DNA from: an uncultured bacterium
GTDB lineage: Bacteria > Armatimonadota > Abditibacteriia > Abditibacteriales > Abditibacteriaceae
NCBI GenBank assembly: GCA_963843795.1
Contig: CAWJLW010000006.1
Location: forward strand, 372,001 to 436,000
Length of the DNA stretch: 64,000 bases
Direction of reading: 5' to 3'
Made by a program: the position numbers and the translations under genes. Below are positions 1,235 to 63,536 of the stretch, piece by piece. How positions within the stretch are numbered: the first letter of the stretch is position 1; every line of letters starts with the position of its first letter. The notes under the pieces were generated by a model. That model was given only the letters and a program-made list of their open reading frames with translations, was not told where the DNA came from and did not search any database.

Positions 1235-1278
1235 AAAGCGCGCTGCAAGTACTTGCGCAAGTACTTGCAGCGCGCTTT
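1235..1278. terminator. 44-bp perfect palindrome holding two tandem GCAAGTACTTGC cores; probable terminator of the ATP-grasp/transglutaminase operon
   Basis: aaagcgcgct-gcaagtacttgc-gcaagtacttgc-agcgcgcttt; the A-run to its left is a U-tract on the minus strand. Confidence 0.65.
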
Positions 1279-1296
1279 AGATTGAGCTGAGATATT

Positions 1297-2292
1297 TTAA
1301 ATCGGGTCGGCCCATACGATCATTGACTTCAGTTCGGCGCTGCCGTAAGTCGTAATCATCGCGCAATCGACGGCATCGCGACCGCGCGCAATCGGCACGC
1401 GACCGATGCGCGGAAAATTATGACGCGCATCAAAAGTGTGCCATGCGCCATCGAGCCACACTTCAAACCACGCGTGAAAATCCATCGGCACGTTCGGCGG
1501 CTTGACACCAACATCAGGCATATAGCCGAAACAATAACGCGCAGGAATATTCAAGGCACGGCAGAACGTGATGCCCATGTGCGCGAAATCACGGCAAATG
1601 CCAGTTCCCTGATTCAAAATATCGACCGTTGTCGTGAACGGATTGCTGGCGCCTTTTTGATAACTGATGTTTTCGTGCAGCCAATCGCAAACCGCTTGCA
1701 CGCGCGCCCAGCCCGGCTTGGTGTTGCCGAACAGTTCCCACGCCTTGTTGCTCAAAACATCTGAAAAGCAGTAGCGGCTGCTCAAGGTGTAAACCAGCAC
1801 ATCATCAGGCAACTCTTCTAACGGTTGTTGAATCGCATCAGGAACTTGTGGGTCGGGCGAAGTCGGCACGCGAAAATTTGCGTTGTAGGTAAACTTTGTG
1901 GTTCCCGCGCCGATAGTGAAACGCGTGACATGATTGCCGAAACCGTCCTGATACGAAGTGAAAGGAATCTCTGGTTCGATTTTCCAACTTTCGCTTTCAA
2001 TTTCATAACGGTCAGCAGTGGGAACTGGCTCGCGACGCGCGTATACCTGCACAATGGCAGGCGTTTCATAATTCGATTCGTAAATAAATTCGCAGCCGGC
2101 ATTCAAGAGAAAGCTTTCGCCGGGTGGAACGGGAATGATGTGGCGTGTTTCCGATTGATTGATATCATCGACCGCTTCTGTGTCCTGTGGCGGTGGAAAA
2201 TCGCCCTGAGGTTGCAGCGAAGTGCGGTGCGATTCATTGGAAAGAGAGGAAGTCATAATTAAGGATAAACAAAAGGCGAATAAACGTGGCAA
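1297..2292 (-). CDS. Transglutaminase-like family protein
   Basis: GICRDFAH, PARYCFGY, DFHAWFEVWLDGAWHTFD catalytic motifs; true start may be the Met near 2256. Confidence 0.9.
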   Translation of the reverse strand: MPRLFAFCLSLIMTSSLSNESHRTSLQPQGDFPPPQDTEAVDDINQSETRHIIPVPPGESFLLNAGCEFIYESNYETPAIVQVYARREPVPTADRYEIESESWKIEPEIPFTSYQDGFGNHVTRFTIGAGTTKFTYNANFRVPTSPDPQVPDAIQQPLEELPDDVLVYTLSSRYCFSDVLSNKAWELFGNTKPGWARVQAVCDWLHENISYQKGASNPFTTTVDILNQGTGICRDFAHMGITFCRALNIPARYCFGYMPDVGVKPPNVPMDFHAWFEVWLDGAWHTFDARHNFPRIGRVPIARGRDAVDCAMITTYGSAELKSMIVWADPI

Positions 2293-2318
2293 GTACTTGC
2301 GGTCGTTTTGAAGCGGCT

Positions 2319-3242
2319 TTAGCCAACGAGTTGCGGTTGTTCTTGCGTAGCGTCTTCACCTTCAATTTGGTTGTAAATGCGAACCAGCAGTGTGGTTTGG
2401 CCGGCCATACCGCGATATAAACCGCGTGTGGGTGTGACATCGCGATAATCGCGCCCAACTGCGATTTTGATGTAGTAATTGTTGGCGAGAAGATTATTGG
2501 TCGGGTCGAAACCGACCCAGTTGCCGCCCGGTAACAGCGTTTCGGCCCATGCGTGCGTGGCGACGCCGCCTTCTGCCGAGCGCGATTTATTGGTGACTAG
2601 ATAACCACTGACATAGCGCGAAGGTAAGCCCGCCGCGCGACACGCCGCGATAAAAATGTGGGCGAAATCCTGACACACGCCTCGTCGCGTTTCAAAAACG
2701 TGCGAAATTCGGGTGTCGATATCGGTTTCCATGGGCGCATATTGAAAGCGCTCGCGAATCAAACCGTTGAGCTTTTGCGTGCCGCCAAACCAATCGGTGA
2801 AAATCGTTTGCGCCTGGCGCATTGTGCCCATCACTTGCTCCTGGCTCAGGCCGCGCGCATCCAAACCCGCATCGCGCGCCAGTTCGTGCACCTGGGGAAT
2901 GTCCTCAATCGGCCCATCGAAATGCAGGAAATCGACGCGTGCACGTTTGACATCCCAGTCGCTTAAGGGCGGTTGCATTTTAAACGGTTGGCGATCCACT
3001 TCCACTGTTGAACGGGCCGTGACCACAAGATTGCGATGTGGCTTTAAAATATTGAACGAATGCAGCGAGTTGCCGAAATAATCAATGCCGGTCGTCATTG
3101 GCGCGTCGGGATCGACCGAAAGCGAGAAATCGTGGCAGGTTTGATGATCGTCACTGCATGGATGCAAACGCACTTCGTTGAAAGCTGCGTGCACGGGGTT
3201 TTCATATTCGTAGCGCGTCTCGTGCAAGGTGGTAATTTTCAT
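2319..3242 (-). CDS. Transglutaminase family protein (Bact_transglu_N plus core)
   Basis: N-terminal HETRYEY and DYFGN; GVCQDFAH, SRYVSGY, HAWAE, GFDPTN, AVGRDY. Confidence 0.92.
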   Translation of the reverse strand: MKITTLHETRYEYENPVHAAFNEVRLHPCSDDHQTCHDFSLSVDPDAPMTTGIDYFGNSLHSFNILKPHRNLVVTARSTVEVDRQPFKMQPPLSDWDVKRARVDFLHFDGPIEDIPQVHELARDAGLDARGLSQEQVMGTMRQAQTIFTDWFGGTQKLNGLIRERFQYAPMETDIDTRISHVFETRRGVCQDFAHIFIAACRAAGLPSRYVSGYLVTNKSRSAEGGVATHAWAETLLPGGNWVGFDPTNNLLANNYYIKIAVGRDYRDVTPTRGLYRGMAGQTTLLVRIYNQIEGEDATQEQPQLVG

Positions 3243-3279
3243 ATTTCTGCGAAACAGGTCGCGTGATTTGAAGCTGCTT

Positions 3280-6231: not shown

Positions 6232-8052
6232 ATGCTCGATCCCACTCAAGCACCCGCCACTCTGGCCGAATTAGCTCAACGCTCTTTTGTTGGTTTTGCC
6301 TCGCGGCCCTGTCTGGGCCACAAATCTGGCAAGGAATATGAATTTCTAACCTATGAGGCTGCCGCGCAACGAGCGCGCAACTTGGCCGCATCGTGGCAGG
6401 AACTGGGTTTGGTGCGCGGCGAACGCGTCGCGATTTTAGCTGAAAACGCCCCTGAATGGGGCATCGTCGATTTCGCCTGTCAACTGCTGGGTGCGATCTC
6501 CGTCCCACTGTTTTCCACGCTGCCAGCCGTCCAAATCCAAGGGATTTTACGCGATTGCGGCGCGAAATTTCTCGTGGTGTCCGACCAGGGCCAATGGAAA
6601 AAAATTGTTGGAATTCGGGAACAATTGCCCGATTGCGAACAGGTTTTTTCGATGAGCGAAATCGAAAACGAGGAAGTCCAAACGTTGGCCGCACTCGAAA
6701 TTGCGGGCAGCAAGTACTTGCAGGAGCATCCTCAAGCGATTGAAACCAGCTGGCCCGCCGCCGACCCCGACGACGCGGCCACAATTATTTACACCAGCGG
6801 CACGACAGGTGAGCCCAAAGGCGTGGTTTTGTCGCATCGCAATCTGGTTGCGAATATCGAAGCGATTTGCGATTGGTTGCGCCAGGCCTTTGCGATGGAC
6901 GAAAACGAAAGCTTTCTTTCTTTTTTGCCGCTCGCGCATATTTTCGAGCGCACCGCTGGTTTTTGGGTGCCAATGCGTTTGGGCGCAAGCGTGGCGTTTT
7001 GCCAGAATTTGCGCACGGTTGACAAAAATATGCGTGAAGTGCGCCCGACTTGCATGATGGCCGTGCCGCGCTTTTACGAAATGTTGCACGACAAAATTGT
7101 CAGTGCTGCCGAAGATTTGCCTGCCGATAAACGGGGCAAGTACTTGCACGCTCTGGCGTTGGCGCGCAAAAGTGGCGCGTATCGTGGCAAAGTGCCAGGT
7201 GCGACGACGCCCAACTTGTGGGAGCGCGTGCAGCTAGCCATTTACGATCGCTTGGTTTATTCAAAAATCCGCGAGCGTTTTGGCGGTCGTCTCAAAGCCT
7301 TTATTGCCGGTGGTGCGCCGATGCCGCCCAGTCTGGCGCAATTGTTTCTGGGCATGAATATCACGATTTTGGAAGGCTATGGCCTGACGGAAACTTCGCC
7401 GGTTATTTCGGTCAATCGTCCGTCGGACATTCGTTTGGGCACGGTGGGTGAAGTGTTGCCGAACGTGGAAATCAAAATCGAAGGCGACGGCGAAATTTGC
7501 GTGCGCGGACCGTCAATTACGCGTGGCTACTGGCAGCGCGAAACCGAAACGCGCGAAGCCATTGATGGCGAAAATTGGTTTCACACCGGCGACATTGGCC
7601 AATTGATAGAAAAAAACGGGCGCAAGTACTTGCAGATAACCGACCGCAAAAAAGATTTGCTGGTGCTGGCCAATGGCAAAAAAGTCGCGCCCGCGCCGAT
7701 TGAAATGCGCCTGAGCCAATCGCCGCTCATTTCGCAGGTAGTTTTATTGGGTGATCATCTCAAAGCGGTTTCCGCCCTCATTGTGCCGCAAATGGAAGCG
7801 CTGCGCTTGTTTGCCGCCAAGCAGAATTTGGCTTTGGAAAGCGACGAAGCGATTCTGCAATCGCCCGCGATTTTAAAACGCATGCGCGAAGAAATTGATG
7901 CGGTCTCGAGCGATTTGGCCGACTTCGAAAAAGTGAAAAGATTTACGCTACTGCCAGCGCCCTTTTCGGTCGAAAATGGTGAGATGACACCGACTTTGAA
8001 AATCAAACGCCGCGTGGTAGCTGAGAAATATGGCGAACTTTTGGAAGTTTGA
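6232..8052 (+). CDS. Long-chain fatty acid--CoA ligase (AMP-dependent, FAA1-like)
   Basis: YTSGTTGEPKG, FLPLAHIFER, EGYGLTET, FHTGDIG, TPTLKIKR; GGAG RBS before ATG 6232. Confidence 0.92.
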   Translation: MLDPTQAPATLAELAQRSFVGFASRPCLGHKSGKEYEFLTYEAAAQRARNLAASWQELGLVRGERVAILAENAPEWGIVDFACQLLGAISVPLFSTLPAVQIQGILRDCGAKFLVVSDQGQWKKIVGIREQLPDCEQVFSMSEIENEEVQTLAALEIAGSKYLQEHPQAIETSWPAADPDDAATIIYTSGTTGEPKGVVLSHRNLVANIEAICDWLRQAFAMDENESFLSFLPLAHIFERTAGFWVPMRLGASVAFCQNLRTVDKNMREVRPTCMMAVPRFYEMLHDKIVSAAEDLPADKRGKYLHALALARKSGAYRGKVPGATTPNLWERVQLAIYDRLVYSKIRERFGGRLKAFIAGGAPMPPSLAQLFLGMNITILEGYGLTETSPVISVNRPSDIRLGTVGEVLPNVEIKIEGDGEICVRGPSITRGYWQRETETREAIDGENWFHTGDIGQLIEKNGRKYLQITDRKKDLLVLANGKKVAPAPIEMRLSQSPLISQVVLLGDHLKAVSALIVPQMEALRLFAAKQNLALESDEAILQSPAILKRMREEIDAVSSDLADFEKVKRFTLLPAPFSVENGEMTPTLKIKRRVVAEKYGELLEV

Positions 8053-11809: not shown

Positions 11810-12745
11810 TCACTGATCCTGATTTTTTATCCAACGTAACAAGTCCGCACGCGCCAATAATCCGCCGCGCCCACCACGAAACTGAGCTTTCCGGGCCGCT
11901 AATGCGGTGGCGATTTGCAAGCGCGTTTCCACTTTGCTGCCACGCGCCAGTTCCGCTACATAAGCGCCGTGAAATACATCGCCGCAGCCTGTCGTATCAA
12001 CCACATTGACAGGGTGTGATGGTACAGCAAGTACTTGCTGGTCGGTTTCTTCTCCGCACGCTACGCAGCCGCGCGCGCCGCAAGTGACAACAGCCAACTT
12101 TCGCGATGCGCCCAAACGTTGAACGGCCATTTGGGCGTTTGCGCTTTGTGTCCACTCGCACGCAAAATGTTCGCCCACAATCAGGTGATCGACGAAGTTG
12201 AACCAGTCGCGAAGATGAGGTGCATCGCGTTCGATGTCGGCCACGAGTGGAATTGCGAGCGCTTGGGCAATTTCGGCGATGAGCGTGCCGTTGGTTTCGA
12301 CCGTGTGATCGAGAAAAATTATTTTCGCGTTTTGCAACAATGATGTTGAAATGTGCGCCACAGGCAAGATTTGGCGGCCTGTGGAATCAGAAAAAATCGT
12401 GCGCGTGCCATTGAGTTCATCGACGATAATTGTTGAATGCGCCGGTCGCGCGTCGGGCGTGGGAAGTACTTGCGAGCAATCGACGCCACTGTTTTCCAGT
12501 TCGGACAGAGCAAACCGCGACCATTCGTCGTCGCCCAGTGCGCCCACGAAAGCGCAACGCGCGCCTAAGTGGGCCGCAGCGACCAGAGCCGTCGCGCACA
12601 AACCTCCGCCCTGCCGTTCGCGCAGTTTTACGCGCGCTTTGCTATCAGGCGCGGGATATTCATCGACGTAAAGAAAATCATCGACGGTAATGGCACCAAA
12701 ACCCAACACGTCCCAAATTTTCGTTGCGCCGGAGTTTCGAGTCAT
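11810..12745 (-). CDS. PfkB family carbohydrate kinase
   Basis: GGG..ATA, GALGDD, VVTCGARG, VVDTTGCGDVFHGA. Confidence 0.92.
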   Translation of the reverse strand: MTRNSGATKIWDVLGFGAITVDDFLYVDEYPAPDSKARVKLRERQGGGLCATALVAAAHLGARCAFVGALGDDEWSRFALSELENSGVDCSQVLPTPDARPAHSTIIVDELNGTRTIFSDSTGRQILPVAHISTSLLQNAKIIFLDHTVETNGTLIAEIAQALAIPLVADIERDAPHLRDWFNFVDHLIVGEHFACEWTQSANAQMAVQRLGASRKLAVVTCGARGCVACGEETDQQVLAVPSHPVNVVDTTGCGDVFHGAYVAELARGSKVETRLQIATALAARKAQFRGGRGGLLARADLLRWIKNQDQ

Positions 12746-12929
12746 AAAGTTTGGGTCAAGTACTTGCCGCGCATTTTCGTCATACTTGGTGTAGTGCTTG
12801 CAACCGCAGTATAAACGACAGTTCAGGGTATACAGAAAAAAGCCGCGTGCACGTTACTTGCGATGGTTTTTTGCGGGTTCAAATTTGCACCATGCGAGCA
12901 ACTGCAACGATTTAGAGGGAGAAACAATT

Positions 12930-13694
12930 ATGGCAATTGGAGATGTTTTGGGACGAGTCGGCTCGATTTTATCGGCCAACGTGAACGATATGTTGGATCG
13001 GGCCGAAGACCCAGTGAAAATGAGCGCCGAATTTCTGCGTCAGGGCAACCAGCAGTTGTCCGAAGTGCGTCACGAAGTCGCGATGGTCATCGCGTCGTAT
13101 GAAGATACCAAGCGCGCCTATAATGAAAACGAGCAAGACATCGTCGACTGGACGAAAAAAGCCGAGATGGCTTTGACGGCAGGTCGAGAAGATTTAGCAC
13201 GCAAAGCTTTGGCCGAGAAAAGCCGTGAACAAAACGAAAATCGCGAACTCGAATCGGTTTTGGAAGAACAAAAAAAACAAGTCGATGTTTTGAAAGAGGC
13301 CGCCGACAAACTGGCGCGCAAAATCGCCGACATGGAAAATCAGCGCAACATTCTGGTCGCCCAGCATCGCACCGCGATTGCGCGCCAACATGTGCAGGAA
13401 GTTTCGACCAATTTGGGCAAAAGCAAAGCTTTGGACGGCTTCGACCGTTTGAAGAAGCGCACACAGATGGAAATGAGCAAAGCTACCGCTTTGGAACAAT
13501 TGTCGGGTCAGAGTTTGGAAGATGAATTCGCCGCTTTGGAAGCCTCAAGTGGTGCTACACCCGTCGATGACGAACTCGCCGCTATGAAAGCTCGCATGGG
13601 CTTGGGCGCACCACGCGCCACGCCAGAACTGCCCGAAAGCGCTTCCAGTTCGCCCGATAAGCCCGCCGCACAATGGGCTGACGGCGATAAATAA
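12930..13694 (+). CDS. pspA: PspA/IM30 family protein
   Basis: ANVNDMLDRAEDP, GREDLARKAL, LEDEFAALE, VDDELAAMKARMG; coiled coil; GAGGGAG RBS. Confidence 0.88.
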   Translation: MAIGDVLGRVGSILSANVNDMLDRAEDPVKMSAEFLRQGNQQLSEVRHEVAMVIASYEDTKRAYNENEQDIVDWTKKAEMALTAGREDLARKALAEKSREQNENRELESVLEEQKKQVDVLKEAADKLARKIADMENQRNILVAQHRTAIARQHVQEVSTNLGKSKALDGFDRLKKRTQMEMSKATALEQLSGQSLEDEFAALEASSGATPVDDELAAMKARMGLGAPRATPELPESASSSPDKPAAQWADGDK

Positions 13695-13727
13695 TAGCTG
13701 CAAGTTCTTCAAAGCTTCGAGCCAAAA

Positions 13728-13763
13728 AAAAGCGCTCCGATCTATTCAGATCGGAGCGCTTTT
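13728..13763. terminator. Bidirectional intrinsic terminator between pspA and the pilus locus
   Basis: aaaagcgctccgatct-attc-agatcggagcgctttt, with A/T runs on both sides. Confidence 0.8.
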
Positions 13764-13798
13764 GTTTTTGATGTGCCGCAAGTACTTGCAGCGTAGTT

Positions 13799-16700
13799 TT
13801 AACCGGGCAACAAGTCGGGCAACACTGGCAAACGCAAACCAGTATCGGTAACGCTGCCGCTACTGACAAAAATATTAGCGGCGCTTGGATCCATTACAGC
13901 TGGATCAAAATTATAGGAAATGTTACCAAACGTTGCAGACGCGCCGGGCGCGGGTGGCGACTGAATGTAAGATGCTTGAGAAACCAGAGAGCCGTCGGTC
14001 TTCAATGCTGCCGATTTGGTGTCATCAAAATCGCTACCTGCCGGACGTGCCGAGTCGAAGTTGAATGTTGCCCACTTATCCATCCAATCGGATACAGAAG
14101 CCGTGTTGGGCAAACCTTCGCTGCTCACCAGCGCGGCGCTTTTCTCCATGATAGCGCCGGTGAATACGACCTGATAATTATAGCGACGCATACGATAAGC
14201 CGCTAATTTTTCTTCTCGCGAAATAACGCCATCGCGATTCAAATCAACGCCCACTTTGCTTCCGCTGACCAAAGTTCTTACGGGAAGTGGATTGGCCGGG
14301 TCAGTCGGATCGGTGGTTATACTCGCGTCGAAATAGCCGCCTGGAACTACCAACCAACTTCCATTTTGTGCATATGCAAAAGCGCGAATGTCCATCGTCT
14401 GGCCCGGAAACAGATGCTGAAATTCTCCGGTTGTGGCATCGTAAGTGTCAGTAACACCAGCAATACCATTCGATAAACCTTCCATCTTTAGACCGTTTAA
14501 ACGATAGTAAGGAATTGGAGCATTAGTGGCATCAAAATAGTCTGATACAGTACCTTGATTAGCGCCCCCAGTGCCGACAGCGGTATCATTCAAACGCAAC
14601 GCAAGCACGTTATTTCCATCAACTGCCGGTGTTGTGATGGCGACATTGCGAGCATCCAATGTACTATTGACTGTATCGTATTGTAATCCTGCCTTGGCAC
14701 CTAAAGACGGAGCAGGGGTTGCAACAGCAGTTGGATCGGCAGAATATGTGTAAAAGCTAGCATCTCCTGTCAGAGCGTCTTCTGGCTGGTCATATTGCGG
14801 ATTGAAACCGAATTGGTTCACTGATTCTGTTACTCGCGCGCCAGCATTCGAATGAATACTTGTTAATGCTTGAGGTTGCAATGGATTAGCAGCAACAAGA
14901 TTTGAAAACACGCTTACCGAAGTTCCCATTGGCATTTTTACGTTTGTTGCTGGAGGAGTCGGATTAAGAATGTCTTCGCCGCGCTGCAAGAGTTCTGCAG
15001 GTGTATAGGCAAAAGAATGTCGATTATGAAGAGCTGCCAAGAAAAAGAAAAGTGGCTGTGCGGTAGCACTAGGACCGTAATTATTGAGAACGCCGCTAGA
15101 GGCGTCATAAGACCACGTCACTCCGGTAGAAGGATGTTTGCCTAACATATCCGTAATGACCGCGTTCAGTGAAAAACTCGTTGGCGGGGACGTAAAATCA
15201 GACGCCAAAGGCTCAGGATCCGCGTAAAATTCATTCCCTTCGTCCGAATCAATCTGTAAAATCTTCGAGGTTACAAGCGTTGACTGGGGATCAGTCGAAG
15301 CAGCTGAACCAGTAACAGGCAGTTTGTTCGATACCGTGACCGCAGTTTGCGGCGGAACGCCATTATTGGCTTTCAATTGCACAGCATATTTCTGTTCGGC
15401 GCTATGATTGAAAACGACGCGCATAGCATTGGCGCCGGGAGCCAAGCGAAAACGTCGCTGCACAACATCCAAAAACACACCGATTCGCGTAGGCGAGTTG
15501 TAATAGGGAACTGTGGTCGCACCGCTACCAAAATTCGGATCGAGAGCCGCTTTAAGCGTGCCCGTTGTCGGAGTAAATGCCAAATCCACTGTGACGGTAT
15601 TGTTGGTTCTGCTGACCACACGATGAACCGTGTTGAGCATACGGACCCAATCACCTGGCTGGAACAAAAGACCATCAGAATCTGGCACAGTCAGTGTTGT
15701 GCCAGCTCGAGATAAAACAGTGGTTTGTGCTGTGTTGCGCTGAACAAGAGCCGTAGGGTTGGGCAGCAAGTTATTTTTGGCCAACAAGAGTACTTTGCGT
15801 TTGCCTGCATTGAGCGAACCGTCAATGTAAATATTATTGCCAGAAACGATAGTAATGCTGCGCCCGGGATCGACAGTCGGGTCGAATATTCCATTTCCAT
15901 CGAACGCCCCGCCCCTCACTCGCGCATTGCCTTCGGCGTAAATCACGCCATTCGCTGGCCATGGAAACACTTTGCGAAAGCCCTTAGTTAATGTGCCACT
16001 GGGATCGCGCCAAGCTTTACTATCATCAGGCGGTGTATTTGTGTTTGTGATGTTGTCGCTTAACTCGTCGCGGGTTACTGTGACTGTGCCAGCCCTCGGG
16101 TCGAGTTCGATGAGCGCGCCACGCGCGCGAAACTCGTCTGGCCCGATCCAACCACGCAAATGTTTCTGTTCGAGAGAGGTAGGTGTGGTGCCAGTAGGTT
16201 GCGTGACACCATAAGGTTTGGCTAAACGCGATGGTGACGTATCGACGTTGGCCGCCGCAGCGGTTTCTGTGCTATAAAGCATTCTTTTGAGGCGCGCATC
16301 ATCCATCGGCTGCCACTGACTGCCCGAGGTTGAAACCTTTTCAACATCTTGGGCGTTGTCGATGTAAATGCCTTCGCCATAACCGAAAAGCGATCCGCTG
16401 GGCTGACCCGCAGCGACGGAAGGCGAATATTTGGTTAGGTTCAGATAGCGTGAAAAGTTGCCGCCCGAACTGATATCCGGTGGCTTAATGGAATCGGTAT
16501 CGCGTGCGCCATCGCTGTTTCCTAACAAGCGATCGCGACCGTCGTTCACGATATTTTGTTTGTTAGCTACTGCTGCCGCAAATGGGAAATTTGGATTGTT
16601 GCTGTCCAGTAGATTATCGCTGGTCGCTGTCCCGTTAATATTGAAAGCACGAACGTAAGCATCAACTGGTGTTGCGCTGCCCGTTGCCACCTGCTGACGA

Positions 16701-17972
16701 CTGGTCATCAGGCCCGAAGCCTTGATGAAAGAATTGTTGGCCCCTACACCTCTGGGTATCACATTGCCCATCCATGCCAAGCCGCCGTTGACCAGAATAC
16801 TGGCGGGATTTCTAACATCGGGCGTATAAGCGACTGCTTCGCGTCCAAAAGTGCGCGCGGCACCCGAACCTGTTCCCCATGTCGCTGTTCCATCCGCATC
16901 ATAATCGACCCCGACTGGTGATCCCAAACCTGCTGCGACTTGCACGATATCACCTTGATTGCACAGTCATCGACTTGGAAACTGTCAGCGTCGCACCAGA
17001 GGCAGACGGTGTTACAGCAGTCACTAAGGCCGAATCCAACCGCGTGCTTAAGTTACTGATAGTGACGTAAAATGGCACGGGGGGCAAAATACCACGCATA
17101 TTGCTAATCTGGGATCAGCTAGCGCCCGTCACTGTGGAGTTGATGGCAGCTGAAGGCACTACATTATTGGAAAAATCCCAGTTCGTGACAAAACGTGCCA
17201 CGGAAGTCAGCGGATTTTGCGGGACGCCGGGCTTAGCGCGGACTTCCCGTACGAAAACGCTGGGGTCATCAGAGCTTTGGCCAATGACATCGACACGCAC
17301 CGTTCCATCGGCATTGGGACGCAGTTCGGTCAGAAATTGCGGTGCACCACTGAGCACTGAAGCGCCGCGCGGATCGGGAAATTTGACGAATAAATGTTTC
17401 GTTGGGTCAGTGCGCAATTGGTTGTCGATGAATAGCCATTGTTCTTCGCGCTTTTCCGCCGCATCGCCTGCGCCGTATGTGATGCCGTTCTTGTTCCAGT
17501 CATCACCGGTAGCCGGCACCGTATTGACGTTGTTTGTCCAACCTTGCGCACGGTCAAAAGCCGAATAATAAAAGTTGAAATCGGGATCAGTCGAAGAAGG
17601 TGGTGGGGAAGTCATGTAGGGACGCCAACGTTCGCCAGGGGCGCTGTTATTGAGCTTATCGTTGACGAAGGTTAAACCAGCAGTCGCGGCAGATTGGGCG
17701 CTACCCAAATTCTGCTGGCGCGCGGTTTGGTTCAAGTTCAGCGAAACCACGGTGATAAATGTCGAACCCAGCAGCGCCGCAAACACCATTAAGAGCACGG
17801 CCAGCAGCAATGCCTGACCGCGACGCGAATTGTGCTCGCGCTTCCAAGCCCGACGGCGCTTGCCACGACGCACTGCGCCCGCAGCGGGCGCGTGCAGTTG
17901 GGCTTCGCGCGCCAGACGAGATTGACGCGCCGTCAACTGAAACAAACTGCGTTGCAAGGGAGAAATGGACAT
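13799..17972 (-). CDS. Very large PilX/GspK-like pilin-leader protein (~1390 aa), putative pilus adhesin; split near 17115 and 16950
   Basis: RRG|QALLLAVLLMVFAALLG...AQSAATAGL N-terminus. Reading continues through 17115-16950 into the 1048-aa ORF (GDIVQVAAGLG); NGVIYAEGNARVRG/ITIVSGNNIYI repeats. Confidence 0.65.
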
Positions 17973-18257
17973 AAGAAAACCTCTTGACACCAACACCATC
18001 TCGAACCGAAGCTCTCGTAAATCAAGAACTTTATGAACGGCTAACGGCAAAACGACAGCGCTTTGCCTGAATTTTTAAGTTGTTGCGATTGTATTGACTG
18101 CGCTTTCGTTATTGCAGAAACCCGAGTTTACCAGATGCCAAAATTTCGCCATCGCGCTGATTCGAGCGCAGCGTTTCGAAAGGCTGCACTCGCGATGAAC
18201 GAAAACTGGTGTGACTCTGGTTATGCCACATTTCGCCGCTAATAGAGAAATTTATTC

Positions 18258-18719
18258 TTAGGGCGTAGAATCATCGAGCTTGCGGGTTCCGTAGTCGCGG
18301 TGGTTGGGAACTGTGCTGGTAGCTCCGGCAGCTACAGTTGCGGGCTGCGCGGTCGTCGTCCACACGCGCGGCGAGGGCGCTCCGGTCTGCAAATTTGGGT
18401 TGGCGGCTCCGTTTGCTTGCGAGCCAGCGCTTGCGCCTTTGGTTTGAAAATTAGGATCGTCGGGAATAAGCGAACCCACAGCTCGCGCGGCGGGATGTGT
18501 GGCGTTGTCGAGCTTGTCTTTGACTTGAACGCCATAACGACCCCAGAATTTGCGCGCGATCCACATTGCAACCATCATTTGCCAAGGGGCTAAAACAGGC
18601 AAATTTAAAGGTTGCTTCGAGCGCGGCAACTTGACCGGTGGCACAGCGCCGCGACCACCAAGGCGCTGCCACGCGAAATTGGCTACCATTGTCAATAAAA
18701 ATCGTAGGAAAACTGCCAT
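18258..18719 (-). CDS. Hypothetical protein
   Basis: GGAGG RBS before ATG 18719 (MAVFLRFLL); no recognisable family. Confidence 0.6.
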   Translation of the reverse strand: MAVFLRFLLTMVANFAWQRLGGRGAVPPVKLPRSKQPLNLPVLAPWQMMVAMWIARKFWGRYGVQVKDKLDNATHPAARAVGSLIPDDPNFQTKGASAGSQANGAANPNLQTGAPSPRVWTTTAQPATVAAGATSTVPNHRDYGTRKLDDSTP

Positions 18720-18891
18720 GTTCAAACCTCCATCCGAAAACAACAAGCAACGCAATTCCGTTGCCATAACCGCGCCGCGCCGTGCAAGTACTTGCACGAT
18801 TGTTTAGCCATCAAAATCACAGACGAGCGCTCGGTTAGCCGGTTGCCTGGCTTGCCCTGAGCGCTCGTGGTGCGTGAATGGGAAACGAAAT

Positions 18892-19989
18892 TCAGGAGCC
18901 GAAACGGGTTTCGGTATTGGGCAAGTCGACAACGCGCGTCAGGCGCACCGTTTGGGCGCGATTCTGCGCTCCCGCGCTGTCATATTTGCCGATAACGAGC
19001 GTGATGGTCACGCGGTCGATAACGCCGTTGTTGTTGGTATCTTCGCAGATGAACGTGGTTTCCGGCTCGAATCGGGGCGTGGCTGGCGGCAACACGTTAG
19101 CAGCGGGCGCGTATAAACCAGCGCCTTTGGGCGTGATGCGGGAATCGGAAAACGGCACTGTATCTGTCGCAGGTGTCGCTCCCCCGATTTGATCCGAAGT
19201 GTCGGGATTAAAGCTGCCTAACAGCGGCTCGCCCAATTCGTTTTGCACCAGCCAGCGCGCGCCGCTGTTATAAAAAGCGGCGTTGCCTCCGCAGTCGGTC
19301 GAACTGGGATAGCGTCGGTTATCGACCAGAGCTTGCGGTGTGGTGTTGTTGGGGAAAAGCGTGCCATCGTTGCGCTTGTAGGGCAAGCGCGTGCGATATA
19401 ACCCGAGCGGATTAACTTCTGCATCATACTTGTCGGCAGTCGCAGTCGGGTCTTCGCGCCGCGCATAATAGGTTACGATGGAGTAACTTTTATCGCGACG
19501 GTTAGCGCCCGGATTTTCATCAATACGCGGCAAAAGAAAGCTGAGACGCGAGGTATTTTCAACTGGCGTTAGACCGCTGCACGCATCGGTATTGGTGCCA
19601 TTGGCTTGATAATACGGATAGCCGATGGTTTCTCCACTTTTGGTGTTATTCGTATAAGGTGCTTTATCCGTAATGCCGACCATGCGCTGATTGGGAAATA
19701 CGAAAGTCGCACGGCTTAATTCTCCAACGATACGGTTCATCGTGGTTTGCGCGGCCTGTTGCGAATCGGCGTTGGCGGTGCCGAGCTGCGTCATATTGAC
19801 GCCGAGATTGAGCGGCACAAACAAAATCACCAGTAGCAAAGACAGAATCGCCAGCGCGACCATGACTTCAATTAAAGTGAAGCCGCGCCGCATTGCGCCC
19901 GCCAATTTACGGCCCGCAAGTACTTGCGGAACACCAGCGCGCGCTGTGTTCGCACGGCGTGACGCACGATGAAAAGAATGTTGAATCAT
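18892..19989 (-). CDS. Prepilin-type N-terminal cleavage/methylation protein (PilW-like minor pilin)
   Basis: RRG|FTLIEVMVALAIL class III signal. Confidence 0.85.
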   Translation of the reverse strand: MIQHSFHRASRRANTARAGVPQVLAGRKLAGAMRRGFTLIEVMVALAILSLLLVILFVPLNLGVNMTQLGTANADSQQAAQTTMNRIVGELSRATFVFPNQRMVGITDKAPYTNNTKSGETIGYPYYQANGTNTDACSGLTPVENTSRLSFLLPRIDENPGANRRDKSYSIVTYYARREDPTATADKYDAEVNPLGLYRTRLPYKRNDGTLFPNNTTPQALVDNRRYPSSTDCGGNAAFYNSGARWLVQNELGEPLLGSFNPDTSDQIGGATPATDTVPFSDSRITPKGAGLYAPAANVLPPATPRFEPETTFICEDTNNNGVIDRVTITLVIGKYDSAGAQNRAQTVRLTRVVDLPNTETRFGS

Positions 19990-20082
19990 AGCGTTTCCTT
20001 CAATGACGAATAATGACGATTTCTTGAGACAAAACCTGTCTGCAAGTACTTGCAGCGCGGAATTATGATTTACGGTTGCAAA

Positions 20083-20988: not shown

Positions 20989-21065
20989 AGAGACACCTGC
21001 AATATTGCAATCACATCAACATTGCACTGGGCATTAATTGCTTAAAGCGTTGGCTGCACAAAGCG

Positions 21066-23061: not shown

Positions 23062-23243
23062 AGCTTTTCCATTGGCTGCGCTATCTTGTGCTCGTAAGTC
23101 AACTCTTGGCACACGCAAATTCTATCCGCAAGCATTCATTACAATAATTGCGCCAGCTTATCAGACAGCGCATCGGTTCGCTTCGTTCCCGTCGCACTAT
23201 AAGCGCAACCTTTTCTTATGCGCATAAAGGTGAATGTCGAAAA

Positions 23244-23274
23244 AGCGCGGGGCGCTATCGCATCCCCGCGCTTC
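23244..23274 (-). terminator. Intrinsic terminator after the DUF1559-like pilin gene
   Basis: aagcgcgggg...ccccgcgctt hairpin followed by a U-run on the minus strand. Confidence 0.6.
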
Positions 23275-23302
23275 TGGCCAGCTTCCGATTTGTGGCCCGT
23301 TT

Positions 23303-41163: not shown

Positions 41164-41201
41164 TCCGCAAGTACTTGCAGCGCGCTGCAAGTACTTGCGG
41201 A
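41164..41201. repeat. 38-bp perfect palindrome with two cores, between ilvC and leuA
   Basis: tcc-gcaagtacttgc-agcgcgct-gcaagtacttgc-gga. Confidence 0.9.
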
Positions 41202-41250
41202 GCAGTGCAGCAAAATTTATTTGTCGGATCAAATTCTCAAGGAGGTAGCG

Positions 41251-42999: not shown

Positions 43000-43024
43000 A
43001 TTTCGGGTTTGTTTAATTCTTTGG

Positions 43025-43064
43025 TAATCTTGTGTCCTGCAAGTACTTGCAGGACACAAGATTA
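43025..43064. terminator. 40-bp perfect palindrome centred on the core motif, between convergent genes
   Basis: taatcttgtgtcct-gcaagtacttgc-aggacacaagatta. Confidence 0.6.
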
Positions 43065-43067
43065 GCC

Positions 43068-43877: not shown

Positions 43878-44063
43878 AACAGTTTTCCTGGAAGCACGAG
43901 ATATGTTGTATTGTAACCGAAAATTTTCCGATTGTGCTTGGCTCGAAACTTAAATTTAATGCGAAGCAGGAAACTATGCCGCAAGATTGATAAAATAACT
44001 GCTAAGAAACCATTTTTTCTGATAGCCGCGTTTAAAGGCGGTTATCAGTACTCGGAGCCAATT

Positions 44064-45492: not shown

Positions 45493-45526
45493 ACGCCAAT
45501 CGCGCTGCAACTACTTACTAGAAACA

Positions 45527-45568
45527 TTGAAAGCCCGCAGAGACTTACAAGTCTCTGCGGGCTTTCAA
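45527..45568. terminator. Inverted repeat (20-bp arms) between convergent leuC and phosphoesterase genes
   Basis: ttgaaagcccgcagagactt-ac-aagtctctgcgggctttcaa. Confidence 0.75.
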
Positions 45569-45590
45569 GTGAATGATTTACCAAGTTGGT

Positions 45591-46568
45591 TCAACGCTGG
45601 ATGAAATTGACGTTTGAAATGGTGAATTGCGAGTCGTCGGTTTTGGTTTTATCGTAAAAAGGCGAATACATGCGCGCGGCAATCGTGCCTTTTTCGGTAT
45701 CAATATCCAGTAAACGGATATAGCCACCTCCGGAATCTTCACCCTGATAGTCTTGTAAAATTTGATAAATCGTGTTGCCCTGAGTTCCGACATCGGCGCG
45801 ATGCGCGGAAGAATCGACGTGACCACTCAATACCAAACGCACATTAGCGTGCTGGCTTATCATGCGATGGTAGATTTCCTGGCAGGTCAAGTCGCCATAT
45901 CCGGCGTTGTTGGAATTGATTTCGCCTTTGGAATTAAGATGAAAATGCGTCAGAATAATCGCGTTGTGTTTAGGGAATTGGTCGAGAATCGTGTTCGCCC
46001 ATGCGACTGGAGCCGGGCGTGCGCAAAATTCCAATGTAATCACCAGCCAGTTCAAGCCGCCCGCTTGGAATGTATAAAACGCGTTATCGCTTTTGTCCGG
46101 TTCAAAGCGACCTCGTTGGGCGCGCAGGCGGCTGACGGGGAAAAAAGTGTTGAAAAACAGGGTCTGGCGTACGTTTTTGTTGGTGTTGCCGGGTGCTGCA
46201 CTGCCCGAAAACCGACCCACAGCGGATGTGTCGTGATTGCCGACCGCCAAAGCATAAGGCAGATTTGCTTGATCCAGTTTTTCAAAGGCATCGCTGGCCG
46301 TCTTCCACTGCGTTGTGTTGTCCCAATCGACAATATCGCCGACGTGCAGAACAATGGGAATCTGCAAATCCTGGCGATGCTTGACCAGCCAATCGAGTTG
46401 GCTGTGCAGCATTTCAGGATGCGCGCGCACTTCGATTTGCGTGTCTGGCAAAATTGGCAGCGTGAAGGGTTTGGCGTACAGCGCGCTGCAAAATAATAGT
46501 AGCGCGAGCGACTGAGCGAGCGATAGAAAAAGCGAAAGAAAACTGGTGCGACAGACATTGCGTTTCAT
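45591..46568 (-). CDS. Secreted calcineurin-like metallophosphoesterase
   Basis: LPDTQ, HVGDIVD, GNHD, LTH, SGHV. Confidence 0.88.
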   Translation of the reverse strand: MKRNVCRTSFLSLFLSLAQSLALLLFCSALYAKPFTLPILPDTQIEVRAHPEMLHSQLDWLVKHRQDLQIPIVLHVGDIVDWDNTTQWKTASDAFEKLDQANLPYALAVGNHDTSAVGRFSGSAAPGNTNKNVRQTLFFNTFFPVSRLRAQRGRFEPDKSDNAFYTFQAGGLNWLVITLEFCARPAPVAWANTILDQFPKHNAIILTHFHLNSKGEINSNNAGYGDLTCQEIYHRMISQHANVRLVLSGHVDSSAHRADVGTQGNTIYQILQDYQGEDSGGGYIRLLDIDTEKGTIAARMYSPFYDKTKTDDSQFTISNVNFIQR

Positions 46569-46682
46569 CAAAAAATCTCCGTTGAATTCTTCTGCCTTCG
46601 ATTCAATTGGGGCGCGCAAGTGTCGTAAAATAAAGTTCGCAGTTTCAATTCACTCGAATTTCACTTTTAATCAAGGAAAATT

Positions 46683-47303
46683 ATGCAACCTTTTACCGTT
46701 CTCACCGGCATTGCCGCGCCGCTCGACCGCGCCAATGTCGATACCGATCAAATCATTCCCAAGCAGTTTCTCAAGCGCATCGAGCGCACTGGTTTCGGCC
46801 AATTTTTGTTCTACGATTGGCGTTACGAAGCTGACGGACGCACGCCCGACGCGAATTTTCTGCTCAACGATGCGCGCTTGGCGGGTGCGCAAATTCTGGT
46901 GGCGCAGAAAAATTTCGGCAGTGGCAGTTCGCGTGAACACGCTCCGTGGGCGCTGGAAGATTACGGGTTTCGCTGCGTCATCGCGCCGAGTTACGCCGAT
47001 ATTTTCTTCAATAACTGCTTTCAAAACGGCATTCTGCCGATTGTGCTGCCTGAAGAAACTGTTGTGCATCTGCTCACTTATTTGGCCGAAAATTTAGGCG
47101 CGCGTTTGACAATTGATTTGCCCGCGCAGACGATTGCGGGCGCTGGAATCGAAAACATCCATTTTGAAATTGACGCTTACCGCAAGCATCGCTTGTTGAA
47201 TGGTTTGGACGACATCGGCATGACGATGCAGCACGAAAGCGATATCACCAATTTTGAAGGCGCACGCCCGCATTGGATGAGCCGCGTGCAAGAAAACGCG
47301 TGA
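46683..47303 (+). CDS. leuD: 3-isopropylmalate dehydratase small subunit
   Basis: [44 protein letters not shown]. Confidence 0.97.
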
Positions 47304-47312
47304 ATTTAAAGC

Positions 47313-47350
47313 CAAAAAGCGCGCTGCAAGTACTTGCAGCGCGCTTTTTG
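47313..47350 (+). terminator. 38-bp perfect palindrome centred on the core motif, after leuD
   Basis: caaaaagcgcgct-gcaagtacttgc-agcgcgctttttg. Confidence 0.7.
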
Positions 47351-47567
47351 CATGAGTAGTTATTTGCAGTCTGCCCACCGCAAAAAACGCGCAAGAAAAA
47401 GTCGATGCCGCTTTGAGAAGCCAAGTTTCTCGGTGGCGAATAGAGCAGTGAACGAAGCGAGATTCATCAGTCCTCCGGCACAAAAAACAACCCTTTTTGT
47501 TCATAAAAAGGAATTGCGCGGCAAAAATAAACCGCGTAAGAGTTGTCAATTTCTTAGAATAGAAAGC

Positions 47568-48986
47568 ATGAATTCAGAATTTGATGCGATTGTTATCGGT
47601 GGTGGGCAGGGCGCGAGTCTGGGCATCGCGCTGGCCAAAGCGGGACGCAAAACCGCGCTCATCGAGCGCGCTTATTTCGGTGGCACTTGTGTCAATTATG
47701 GCTGCACACCGACCAAAACAATGGTTGCCAGCGCGCAAGTCGCGCACACCGCGCGTCACAGCGATCGTTACGGCGTTTACTGCGGTGGCGTTACCGTTGA
47801 AATGAAAGACGTCGTGGCGCGCAAAAATGCCGTGGTGGAAGATTTTCGGCAAAGCGTGGAAGCAAATTTAGAACACGAAAACTTGCAGATTTTCTGCGGC
47901 GAAGCCAAATTCACTGGTCACAAAGCCGTGCAAGTACTTGCAGATGGGAAAACGCACGATTTGACAGCCGAAACAATCGTGATTGCCGTTGGCACGCACA
48001 ATAAAGTTCCACCAGTTGAAGGTTTGGATGGTGTGGATTTTTTGGATTCGACTTCGATTATGGAATTGGATGTCGTGCCCGAACATCTGATGATTCTGGG
48101 CGGCGGCTATATTTCGGTCGAATTCGGACAAATGTTCCGGCGCTTCGGTGCGCGTGTCACAATTATCGAAAAAAACCCGCAATTGTTATCGCGTGAAGAT
48201 GCCGATGTGGCGCAGCGTGTGCGCGAAATTTTACAGGAAGACGGGCTGGAAATTCTTTGCGACGCCAAAGTGCAAAGCGTGGCCCAGGATGGCGATGAAA
48301 TCGCGCTGCAAGTACTTGCAGGCGCAGAAGAGCGCGAACTGCGCGGCTCGCATTTGCTCGTCGCAATTGGGCGCGCGCCTTCAACAGGCGATTTGGGTTT
48401 GGAGAAAACCGGCGTCGAATGTGATGAGAAAGGCTATCTCCAAGTCGATGCACAGTTGCAAACAAATGTTGCGGGCATTTATGGATTGGGCGAAGTTGCG
48501 GGCAGCCCGCCCTTTACGCATATCGCCTATGACGATTTTCGCATTCTGTGCGCGAACTTGACCGAAGACAAGAATTGCGACACCAAAGATCGCCTGATTC
48601 CGTGGGTAGTTTTCATGAATCCGCAACTGGGGCGCATCGGTGTGAATGAAAAAGAAGCGCGCGAAAAAGGCGTGGATTACGCAATTGCGCAGATAGAAAT
48701 GGACGCGATTGCGCGGCCTTTGGAAACCGGACAAACGCGTGGCTTCTGGAAAGTTTTAATCGCACCGGACGGAGAAATTTTAGGTGGTTCGTTTTTGTCG
48801 ATGGAAGGCGGCGAAGTGATGGCCATGTTGCAACTCGCGATGATTGGAAAGCTGTCATACGACAAGCTGCGCGACTTGCCGATAGCGCATCCGACGCTGG
48901 CCGAATCGTTCAACAATTTGTTTCTCAAGTTCGACCGCGACCAGCAAAAAGGTCACACAGAACGGCATGGCGCAACCGGCGCATGA
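47568..48986 (+). CDS. Pyridine nucleotide-disulfide oxidoreductase (MerA/RclA/LpdA-like, no C-terminal Cys pair)
   Basis: IGGGQG, GGTCVNYGCTPTK, GGGYISVEF, HPTLAE. Confidence 0.88.
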   Translation: MNSEFDAIVIGGGQGASLGIALAKAGRKTALIERAYFGGTCVNYGCTPTKTMVASAQVAHTARHSDRYGVYCGGVTVEMKDVVARKNAVVEDFRQSVEANLEHENLQIFCGEAKFTGHKAVQVLADGKTHDLTAETIVIAVGTHNKVPPVEGLDGVDFLDSTSIMELDVVPEHLMILGGGYISVEFGQMFRRFGARVTIIEKNPQLLSREDADVAQRVREILQEDGLEILCDAKVQSVAQDGDEIALQVLAGAEERELRGSHLLVAIGRAPSTGDLGLEKTGVECDEKGYLQVDAQLQTNVAGIYGLGEVAGSPPFTHIAYDDFRILCANLTEDKNCDTKDRLIPWVVFMNPQLGRIGVNEKEAREKGVDYAIAQIEMDAIARPLETGQTRGFWKVLIAPDGEILGGSFLSMEGGEVMAMLQLAMIGKLSYDKLRDLPIAHPTLAESFNNLFLKFDRDQQKGHTERHGATGA

Positions 48987-49798: not shown

Positions 49799-49850
49799 TC
49801 GAGAAAAAGCGCGCTGCAAGTAACTTGCAGCGCGCTCGCATGAAAGCAAC

Positions 49851-62112: not shown

Positions 62113-62128
62113 AACCCATTTTTCCGAT

Positions 62129-62164
62129 AGAAACGCCGCTGCAAGTACTTGCAGCGGCGTTTCT
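62129..62164 (+). terminator. 36-bp perfect palindrome centred on the core motif, after the HD-GYP gene
   Basis: agaaacgccgct-gcaagtacttgc-agcggcgtttct. Confidence 0.6.
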
Positions 62165-62432
62165 CATTGACTTTTGAAGCGTATGGTTGAGAGTAAGTGC
62201 AGATTGAATTGGTGAATGGGTACAAACAGAAATCTTCAATGCTCGCCAACGCGAGCTAAAGGAAAAGCGGCGCGTTTTGTTTCCGATTCGTCTGACACCG
62301 TTTGAAACGCTACGCAAATGGAAAGCTTTTGACAGCGATACGGGCTGCGATATGGCGCGCGAAATCCGCAAGTACTTGCAGGGCGCATTTTTTGCATTTA
62401 AGCGCGCCGATTAACAAGGGAAGTGGAATATT

Positions 62433-63458
62433 ATGGGTTTGAAAAAGGCGACACTTTGGGCACTTAGCGGCGCGGCGGCGACGGTTGGAACGATGGTGGT
62501 TTTGCAGAAAAAACGTCATTTCGATCTCACCAATCGCGTGGTTCTCATCACCGGCGGCAGTCGGGGTTTCGGTTTACTGTTGGCGCAGGAGTTCGCCAGT
62601 CGTGGCGCGCGCGTGGCGATTTGTGCGCGCGATGGCGAAGAGCTGGAACGCGGGCGCAGGTACTTGCAGCAATTTGGTTTGGATGCGCGCGCGTTCGTAT
62701 GCGATGTGACGCAAAAGGCGCAAATTGAGCATTTGGTGGAAGAAGTCGAGCGCGAGTTGGGTTCGGTCGAAGTGCTGGTCAATAATGCAGGCGTAATTTC
62801 GATGGGGCCGGTCGATGCAATGACCGATGAAGATATGAAAGCGTCGATTGACACCCACATCTGGGCGGCCTGGCACGCTTGCAACGCCGTTTTGCCCGCG
62901 ATGCGCGCGCGGGCTAGTGGGCGCATTTTGAATATTTCGTCTATTGGCGGGCGTGTCAGCGTTCCGCATCTCACGCCTTATGCAGTGGGCAAATTCGGCT
63001 TAGCGGGTTTGTCGCAGGGCTTGCGCATTGAATTGGCGCAATACGGTGTTTTAGTGACGACGGCGTTTCCGTTTCCCATGCGCGTCGGTTCGTTTATTAA
63101 CGCGACAATGAAAGGTCAACATCGCAAAGAGTTCGCGCTGGGCCAAATTGTTGATTCTAATCCGCTGCTTTCGCAAAACCCTGAACGCGCGGCGCGCAAT
63201 GTCGTGGAAGCTGTGATTCGCGGCGATTCCTATATCGTGCCCTCGAATCGCGGGCAACTGGCGATTACATTAGCTGCGGTTTTTCCTGGACTGGCACTGG
63301 AAGCGACTTCGCTGCTGGGCCGTTTTATGCCGTCCAAAGATGGACCGGAAAGCATTGGCAGCGCGGGCGTGAAAGGCAAAGACAGCGAATCGGTGTTCGC
63401 ACCTTCGGTTTTAACGGTGCTCAACGACAAAGCCGCGCGCGAGTTGAACGAGCTTTAA
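62433..63458 (+). CDS. SDR family oxidoreductase
   Basis: TGGSRGFG, VNNAG, NISS, YAVGK. Confidence 0.92.
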   Translation: MGLKKATLWALSGAAATVGTMVVLQKKRHFDLTNRVVLITGGSRGFGLLLAQEFASRGARVAICARDGEELERGRRYLQQFGLDARAFVCDVTQKAQIEHLVEEVERELGSVEVLVNNAGVISMGPVDAMTDEDMKASIDTHIWAAWHACNAVLPAMRARASGRILNISSIGGRVSVPHLTPYAVGKFGLAGLSQGLRIELAQYGVLVTTAFPFPMRVGSFINATMKGQHRKEFALGQIVDSNPLLSQNPERAARNVVEAVIRGDSYIVPSNRGQLAITLAAVFPGLALEATSLLGRFMPSKDGPESIGSAGVKGKDSESVFAPSVLTVLNDKAARELNEL

Positions 63459-63480
63459 ATGCAGATCATGAAAGTCGCAA

Positions 63481-63536
63481 AGTGAAGAGAGAATGGCGCG
63501 CTGCAAGTACTTGCAGCGCGCCATTCTCTCTTCACT
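63481..63536. terminator. 56-bp perfect palindrome centred on the core motif, between convergent genes
   Basis: agtgaagagagaatggcgcgct-gcaagtacttgc-agcgcgccattctctcttcact. Confidence 0.7.

Follow-up and report, generated by a model that had tools for sequence, protein, structure and literature searches.

An iterated GTAC-core palindrome of the Abditibacteriaceae with the arrangement of HIP1 and dialects like those of DNA uptake sequences

Why should a soil bacterium carry one 12-bp palindrome, GCAAGTACTTGC, again and again along its chromosome? The question is raised by a window of 64,000 nucleotides, taken from contig CAWJLW010000006.1 (here C6) of a genome that its protein names assign to the family Abditibacteriaceae (G000; 4.30 Mb, 11 contigs, 92% complete). 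Our preferred answer, with a probability of roughly 0.45, is that the palindrome may be a methylated self-tag for natural transformation, read by a DNA-binding step that prefers it. An initial annotation of the window had listed 43 exact copies, about 18 of them as the 14-mer TGCAAGTACTTGCA, together with 11 near-copies, and had proposed a motif akin to the highly iterated palindromes (HIP) or to DNA uptake sequences (DUS), kept genome-wide by a molecular drive. All 43 copies (starts 1245 to 63503; none in 100 dinucleotide shuffles) and 18 14-mers were recovered; ten of the near-copies are one-mismatch variants, the eleventh, at 42717, having two mismatches.

Counts over the whole genome indicated that the palindrome occurs 2,567 times, against 0.09-0.2 copies expected under a Markov model with the core masked, and that it is not confined to the region where it was noticed, copies being present on all 11 contigs. 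These numbers, and the predicted GTAC methyltransferase to which the motif is linked below, support a genome-wide drive. The 14-mer makes up 1,290 of the copies, and 879 extend to the longer form CTGCAAGTACTTGCAG. Density ranges from 47 to 83 copies per 100 kb across most of the 3.6-Mb main contig and is 61 at the turning point of the GC skew, the presumed terminus, versus 65 elsewhere; no long-range period was found at 5-150 kb (peak p 0.23 against permuted spacings). The two largest motif-free gaps, of 26 kb each, are both islands rich in insertion sequences, one of them with a type I restriction system. Perfect copies stand to one-mismatch variants as 2,567 to 506, and about half of all GTAC sites (3,038 of 6,374) are unrelated to the motif, with at least four mismatches to it.

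Assembly artefact was rejected as the source of the motif, copies being found also in separate short-read contigs and in metagenome contigs; a short-read contig of run X1, possibly from the same sample, covers the copy at 20042 and is identical. A mobile unit was rejected as well, since the surroundings of the copies hold no conserved unit, as the annotation had also reported. A plasmid search gave short gene matches only, a viral scan gave six single matches without enrichment, and an Rfam search of the window gave no match.

Using our own gene caller (3,379 genes), 1,815 copies (71%) were classed as intergenic, 745 as coding and seven as lying at contig ends, that is 2.9 copies per kb of intergenic DNA versus 0.20 per kb in genes; the motif occurs in 278 of the 450 convergent spacers and in 236 of the 448 divergent ones. 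In the window, where copies had been noted in spacers and genes alike, 35 are intergenic and eight coding, and two of the former (19916 and 23003) probably fall within the codons of prepilin leaders. Copies are spaced more evenly than under class-matched random placement, with a coefficient of variation of 0.89 versus 1.20 ± 0.03 and with 3.5% versus 10% of gaps exceeding 4 kb; the closest intergenic neighbour of a coding copy is 1,042 bp away (694 ± 33 at random), coding copies filling the gaps between intergenic ones. Such even, saturating spacing fits the saturating effect of HIP1 described in 10.1101/2024.09.10.611283; there and in PMC13756078, HIP1 palindromes are described as raising transformation, with little gain from a second site.

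Alignment of coding copies with orthologues fits an origin by substitution at tolerant positions and not by insertion, because 47 of 56 alignments (52 sites) are ungapped, protein identity is 30% locally at motif sites versus 58% overall, and peptides spelled by the motif are in excess. The three reading frames give QVLA 491 times, KYL 141 times and ASTC 113 times; the proteome contains 562 QVLA peptides against a permutation median of 36 (about 15-fold), 491 of them spelled by the motif, and 131 ASTC peptides against 3. In a 606-aa gene with three coding copies (Table 1), two align gap-free with the orthologue of relative G003 and the third adjoins a gap. A point against this origin is that gapped alignments (9 of 56) exceed the 6% background.

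Convergent intergenic copies have complementary arms, 77% of them reaching folding energies under -12 kcal/mol, and A or T tails are present in about two thirds; in this they resemble bidirectional terminators. Tandem motif pairs at spacing 12 number 12 on C6. Repetitive extragenic palindromes (REP), associated with RAYT transposases, are intergenic palindromes able to act as terminators, and G000 has one RAYT gene. A reading of the motif as nothing more than a common terminator hairpin, or as a remnant of REP or of miniature inverted-repeat transposable elements, would suit the 71% of intergenic copies and their folding; we consider it very improbable, being already largely refuted by the coding copies. 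These are evenly placed along genes, show no excess of arm complementarity (653 deep coding copies) and have phased flanks, and about half of the copies sampled in relative G009 are coding. The motif has no GTAG foot, and the RAYT gene has its own GTAG-type REPs (24 copies), which differ in sequence from it.

The preference for GCGCT or GCCCT flanks noted by the annotation is right, and the signal reaches further, into A-tracts 8-11 bases out and then periodic A/T. In 626 deep coding copies A/T rises symmetrically near bases 9-10, 20 and 31 (z up to 12), with G/C troughs at 14 and 26 bases. This flank periodicity measures 10.5 bp in G000, 10.2 bp in G009 and 10.4 bp in metagenome relatives, distinct from the general sequence period of G000 (11.1 bp); it was not seen in the smaller sample of G012 and is flat in two control words. 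Copies that lie close together are separated by multiples of 10.4 bp (Rayleigh 27.6, n=227). Since coding copies without arm complementarity still keep symmetric phased flanks, a protein likely reads the motif on double-stranded DNA and bends it.

Such a protein could be an abundant dimeric chromosome-organising or replication-linked factor, SeqA-like or SlmA-like and perhaps sensing GTAC methylation, with selection on binding sites keeping the motif. We hold this to be rather unlikely; it stays close because competence genes are found family-wide and no reader was found (below). It would explain the dyad-symmetric flanks with a period distinct from that of the genome, the in-phase neighbours, the even spacing and the presence of the motif in 236 of 448 divergent spacers, and the SlmA site GTGAGTACTCAC, as described in PMC3020112, is likewise a 12-bp palindrome with an AGTACT core. 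Against it, the terminus is not excluded and no 5-150 kb period was found, whereas nucleoid occlusion sites of the SlmA/Noc type number in the tens and spare the terminus; PMC3020112 gives 52 SlmA sites, absent from Ter and none in promoters, about 50 times fewer than here. It would also be surprising for a structural site to turn over in sequence both among genera and inside them, and to take the asymmetric form seen in G006. One candidate, a small basic protein matching AP2 below the cut-off, was found in all seven motif genomes and not in the two exceptions with an orphan methyltransferase, but it was picked after the fact, occurs also in 11 motif-negative genomes, and its residues do not follow the dialects. 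These proteins (G000:C6:1248447-1248965 and 2124483-2125031; weak AP2 match, no HNH hit) form two subfamilies in 18 of 27 family genomes.

Two kinds of partner that the annotation had suggested looking for, a GTAC methyltransferase and competence genes, have candidates in G000. The only PF01555 match lies at C6:2517365-2518135 and has a DPPY motif; Dam-type and C5 methyltransferases were not found in G000, and PF02384 matches number seven at five loci, at least two of them beside mobile or restriction genes. Of 241 homologues found for the PF01555 enzyme, the neighbourhoods were compared at 80 genome loci. At three of the 80 (61-63% identity to the G000 enzyme), an R.PabI-family gene lies directly upstream (Pfam E 2.5e-13, 6.2e-12 and 8.6e-6; PDB 2dvy E 3.5e-17), R.PabI being described as recognising GTAC (PMC7229829, PMC4615327). 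The predicted target-recognition region of the G000 enzyme is nearly identical to that of the R.PabI-adjacent homologues, and in all eight outside taxa sampled that carry a homologue GTAC is reduced to 0.09-0.54 of its expected frequency. Because of these neighbours, this region and this depletion, the G000 enzyme is predicted likely to make GTm6AC (m6A, N6-methyladenine), and there is fair support for an orphan descended from a restriction-modification pair. Several observations weigh against the GTAC target: the enzyme is beta-type, unlike the gamma-type partners of R.PabI described in PMC4615327; CTAG is also depleted (0.14-0.71) in the same eight outside taxa, a set with no enzyme-free control taxa; and the best solved relative is M.RsrI. 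The target of M.RsrI is GAATTC, which was set aside, GTAC being preferred because GAATTC (0.77 of expectation) and AATT (1.07) are unremarkable. For M.BceJIV the target is given as GTWWAC (PMC11380664). Variants with one extra base at GT|AC number 66 in G000 versus 1-8 for other internal insertions, some breaking genes, and GTAC lies near 5 of 32 predicted +1 frameshifts against 1.0 expected; possibly these are long-read errors at a modified base, only a hint of methylation.

An orphan methyltransferase with its predicted target embedded in the motif, as described for HIP1 in PMC4390886, could also point to a methylation-biased repair or gene-conversion ratchet, the HIP model of Elhai moved to m6A, which would fix the motif without function beyond terminators. 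The very high ratio of perfect to one-mismatch copies and the overwriting of proteins at variable positions would follow from it. We judge it improbable: the Elhai model, as set out in PMC4390886, postulates methyl-cytosine at GC, and neither a C5 nor a Dam-type enzyme was found in G000; about half of the GTAC sites are unrelated to the motif; and a local process predicts neither spacing repulsion nor phased flanks. Among the three drives that the annotation had proposed, methylation-directed repair alone fits least because MutH was not found in three motif genomes (G000, G009, G006) and because of the 12-base specificity with phased flanks.

At five of the 80 homologue loci a 210-aa gene converges on the methyltransferase. 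Its product, of a family with 490 homologues, has a weak likeness to ScaI- and PvuII-type nucleases and is predicted to cut GTAC; its atlas neighbours are unnamed bacterial and viral clusters, including phage and Nucleocytoviricota. The methyltransferase was found in 22 of 27 family genomes and the partner gene in 13, all 13 with the methyltransferase. The GTAC motif is present in 7 of the 9 genomes with the methyltransferase only, in none of the 13 with the partner and in none of the five with neither (Fisher p 2e-4, overstated by kinship); the partner gene was found in none of the seven motif genomes, and R.PabI in none of the five tested. The presence of the motif follows the methyltransferase without its putative nuclease partner. 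Genome-wide AGTACT counts are only 1-21 in 11 of the 13 partner-bearing genomes. In a PilT tree of 17 rows without an outgroup, G017 falls with G012 (support 0.96), but it carries both genes and lacks the motif, a close contrast to the five other members of its genus. Another is G020, whose enzyme is closest to that of G000 (75%) and grouped with it (support 0.81).

This association, too, has points against it. The partner has no Pfam match, its nuclease activity being predicted only, and it adjoins the methyltransferase in only some genomes; partner-bearing G017 and G003 still hold 175 and 285 AGTACT; and the methyltransferase hits in G013 and G022 contain stops. G004 and G007 have the enzyme without the partner, yet show no GTAC consensus, so the enzyme is not sufficient, and no GTAC motif was seen in 52 Verrucomicrobiaceae loci carrying a homologue. 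Genes not found may reflect incomplete genomes (G001 63%, G019 77%), and the 7 of 27 motif-positive genomes come from two genera, kin that are not independent.

Absence from reads or from relatives had been named by the annotation as a reason for doubt. A separate short-read contig carries a copy, as described above; the exact 12-mer was found at 0-3 copies, absent or at chance level, in 40 of 40 relatives, where dialects were found. AGTACT counts in the 27 family genomes are bimodal (2,813-4,733 in six, 1-285 in 21), and GTAC-core dialects occur in six genomes besides G000, namely G001, G006, G009, G012, G015 and G019. Those of G001 (CAAAGTACTTTG), of G009, G015 and G019 (TCGAGTACTCGA) and of G012 (CGAGTACTCG) are palindromic; that of G006, AAGTACGGTCGAA, is non-palindromic and occurs singly and as overlapping inverted pairs, its 10-mer reaching 2,981 copies versus at most 11 in the other 26 family genomes. 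Across 401 genomes of the phylum RAGTACTY is enriched in six, every one of them Abditibacteriaceae, and among the 374 genomes sampled outside the family none shows this enrichment. Among the 80 loci listed, of at least 132 in metagenome contigs of relatives, CAAGTACTTG occurs at more than 1 per kb where GC is 61-70%, and contigs at a protein identity of about 45-75% are also dense in the 12-mer.

Motif discovery on stretches of 15-100 kb taken from G002, G003, G005, G008, G010, G013, G014, G017, G021, G022, G023 and G041 found no comparable word, samples of this size being able to hide sparse motifs; G011, G020, G024 and G042 offered too little sequence. A weak, mostly coding word of G004, TCGATATCGA, was dropped as a dialect. 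In G007, G016 and G018 a second dense non-palindromic motif, CAGCCACG, is present at 2,676-3,503 copies, about 10 times control; it has no GTAC, is balanced on both strands, is mostly coding in G007 and forms inverted pairs in G016. It may be a separate system, and its carriers sit poorly with a methyltransferase-dependent signal, G016 lacking the methyltransferase and G018 having the partner gene. GTAC is wholly absent from 15-60 kb samples of G005, G008, G011, G018, G022 and G041, in most of which CTAG is nearly absent and in which the non-palindromic CTAC is over-represented. Short contigs L424 (G024:C98) and L425 (G020:C179) hold nine and five AGTACT, a large share of the totals of those motif-negative genomes, and would be mis-binned contigs or DNA acquired from a motif-bearing relative.

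If the motif serves transformation, the type IV pilus locus in the window (Table 1) is the candidate uptake machinery; it is common to motif-positive and motif-negative relatives (gene order, 21 genomes), and comEC, comEA and dprA are also present in G000. The points against an uptake role come from the same genes. ComEC was found in 27 of 27 and comEA in 25 of 27 family genomes, so that the competence genes, being family-wide, do not track the motif; ComP_DUS (PF16732) was under the cut-off in 5 of 5 motif genomes tested (ComN/PpdA not searched), and minor pilins are not basic. No gene tracking the motif was found through pilus gene order, two pilin trees, pilin charge and methyltransferase neighbourhoods, nor did a codon-bias screen of small basic proteins yield one. 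Flanks that are symmetric out to about 40 bp, and neighbours in helical phase, would be just as expected of a chromosomal protein; the sequence by itself does not tell uptake from binding by a nucleoid protein.

The approximately 1,300-aa PilX-type protein of the pilus locus has atlas neighbours with DUF4900/PilX_N on a minority of members; it has no Pfam match, and its model (predicted local distance difference test score, pLDDT, 69) gave no PDB match at E<=0.001, so that a likeness to ComZ (PMC6561018) was not supported. The segment at 13799-24340, with the four prepilins and this protein, is duplicated in G007, G012, G016 and G017 and missing from the locus in G006. A pattern search revealed about 30 prepilin-type proteins in G000 with an H-X9-DG-like C-terminal motif. 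At 22058, 22068, 22674 and 26703 pilus genes are frameshifted by extra bases that the short-read contigs of run X1 do not have, and several split genes in the window are therefore likely assembly errors.

Comparison with known systems places the motif outside each class, since its sequence, phylum, enzyme type or symmetry differs from HIP1 and DUS. HIP1 (GCGATCGC; 33 copies in G000) and alternate HIPs are, as described in PMC4390886, PMC5861425 and PMC13756078, palindromes at about 0.6 per kb in genes and spacers, with origin by substitution, regular spacing, an embedded orphan methyltransferase target (predicted here) and a proposed link to transformation. The present motif resembles them in these points; it belongs to a phylum other than the cyanobacteria, is 12-14 bp long with soft arms and phased A/T flanks, goes with one predicted beta-type m6A enzyme and no C5 or Dam enzyme found, varies between genera and species, is strongly intergenic in G000 and is tied to the absence of a putative partner nuclease; a period of tens of kb, reported in PMC5861425 for 22 of 50 HIP1 genomes, has no counterpart in G000. 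With DUS and the uptake signal sequences (USS) it shares thousands of copies at about one per kb, on both strands, in dialects around a conserved core (PMC3630211, PMC1626085); A/T-rich flank segments at helical spacing are described for USS in PMC1626085, and AAGTACGGT of G006, which forms inverted pairs, is one base from the Haemophilus USS core AAGTGCGGT given there. It differs in being mostly palindromic (perfectly so in G000, asymmetric only in G006), patchy (7 of 27), linked to a methyltransferase and without a ComP match, its uptake role being read from sequence. In Campylobacter jejuni the methylated palindrome RAm6ATTY acts in DNA uptake (PMC10046745), again through adenine methylation by an orphan enzyme, CtsM, as a self mark (methylation predicted and role proposed here); there the 6-bp methylation site is the whole signal, whereas here a predicted 4-bp site lies inside a 12-bp motif needing a second reader. 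Chi and the FtsK-orienting polar sequences (KOPS) are polar and strand-skewed; a palindrome cannot be polar, which excludes this for G000, and the asymmetric words of G006 and G007 are balanced on both strands in the regions sampled. Neither the 12-mer nor a palindrome or GTAC signal of Abditibacteria was found in open-access PMC and bioRxiv text, supplements excluded.

Transformation is preferred because the dialects match DUS, the flank tracts match USS, methylated palindromes have precedents and competence genes are present. The self-tag reading begins from what is observed, namely 2,567 evenly spaced copies, missing from two islands and fitting an origin by substitution, and dialects in six relatives. 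The methyltransferase, coming from a restriction-modification pair and found without its partner, would write GTm6AC (fair support). GTAC would have been purged while the partner nuclease was present, and after its loss the rare GTAC would have been free as a signal. A second, lineage-specific protein would read the flanks on the double strand and bend the DNA; that it acts in DNA uptake or processing is the least supported step. DNA carrying the self tag would then enter recombination more frequently, with point mutation spreading the tag. By their sequence, many intergenic copies have been extended into terminator-like hairpins, a secondary use. It is a more tentative proposal, and one we hold as doubtful, that an uptake code evolved independently in the Abditibacteriaceae by domesticating GTAC restriction-modification, a fast-evolving reader having built the dialects, one of them converging on the Haemophilus USS.

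Table 1. Coordinates of the motif copies, their variants and the genes discussed (window positions unless a locus or contig is named).
Feature	Position	Strand	Basis or remark
GCAAGTACTTGC copies, n=43	1245..63514	.	sequence count; core GTAC, soft arms GCGCT/AGCGC, phased A/T tracts
GCAAGTACTTGC starts, part 1	1245, 1257, 2289, 4293, 6174, 6710, 7136, 7622, 12027, 13778, 18784, 19916, 20042, 23003		
GCAAGTACTTGC starts, part 2	25657, 27057, 28550, 30574, 32345, 34101, 37790, 38054, 39646, 40048, 41167, 41187, 41341, 43039		
GCAAGTACTTGC starts, part 3	47326, 47930, 48308, 51529, 53362, 53374, 55973, 58416, 58466, 59291, 59430, 60828, 62141, 62368, 63503		
Tandem motif pair in A-tract/GC-stem/T-tract hairpin, terminator-like, after gene ending 1297	1234..1279	.	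sequence
Three coding copies (6710, 7136, 7622) in 606-aa gene 6232-8052	6710..7633	+	read S-K-Y-L-Q, G-K-Y-L-H, R-K-Y-L-Q
Five further coding copies: 12027, 32345 (ftsK), 41341, 47930, 48308	12027..48319	.	own gene calls; FtsK by Pfam
Type IV pilus locus: pilB, pilT, pilC, pilD, four prepilins, ~1,300-aa PilX-type protein	13799..30600	-	Pfam; gene order in 21 genomes
Centre-insertion variant, one extra base at GT|AC, frameshifts pilD	24804..24816	.	
Perfect GC-armed hairpin with A/T tails around a copy, between pilC and pilD	25645..25680	.	sequence
Second centre-insertion variant, intergenic (C6:421816)	49816..49828	.	
RAYT transposase gene between REP doublets of its own with a GTAG foot (24 similar copies in the genome), unrelated to motif	G000:C6:751600-752500		
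R.PabI-family genes paired with beta-type methyltransferase, Poribacteria and Puniceicoccaceae	L366:9252-9995, L400:9258-9995, L359:6367-6618		
210-aa putative restriction endonuclease genes	L342:10849-11565, L393:10806-11438	-, -	family with 490 homologues

The motif is an arrangement of the HIP1 kind outside the cyanobacteria, with DUS-like dialects. Repeats as dense as this have been described for the cyanobacteria (HIP1), the Neisseriaceae and the Pasteurellaceae, and for three decades it has been asked where HIP1 comes from and what it does; a single family in which the motif is present, absent or respelled, and follows a methyltransferase found without its putative nuclease, makes the question of origin testable by comparison. 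The 15-fold excess of QVLA indicates that a DNA signal measurably rewrites a proteome. If the proposal of a domesticated restriction-modification system is true, the family would hold every stage, from the restriction pair with GTAC purged, through the orphan untagged and the orphan tagged, to the loss of both, and would offer a natural series for the origin of HIP1-like and DUS-like signals.

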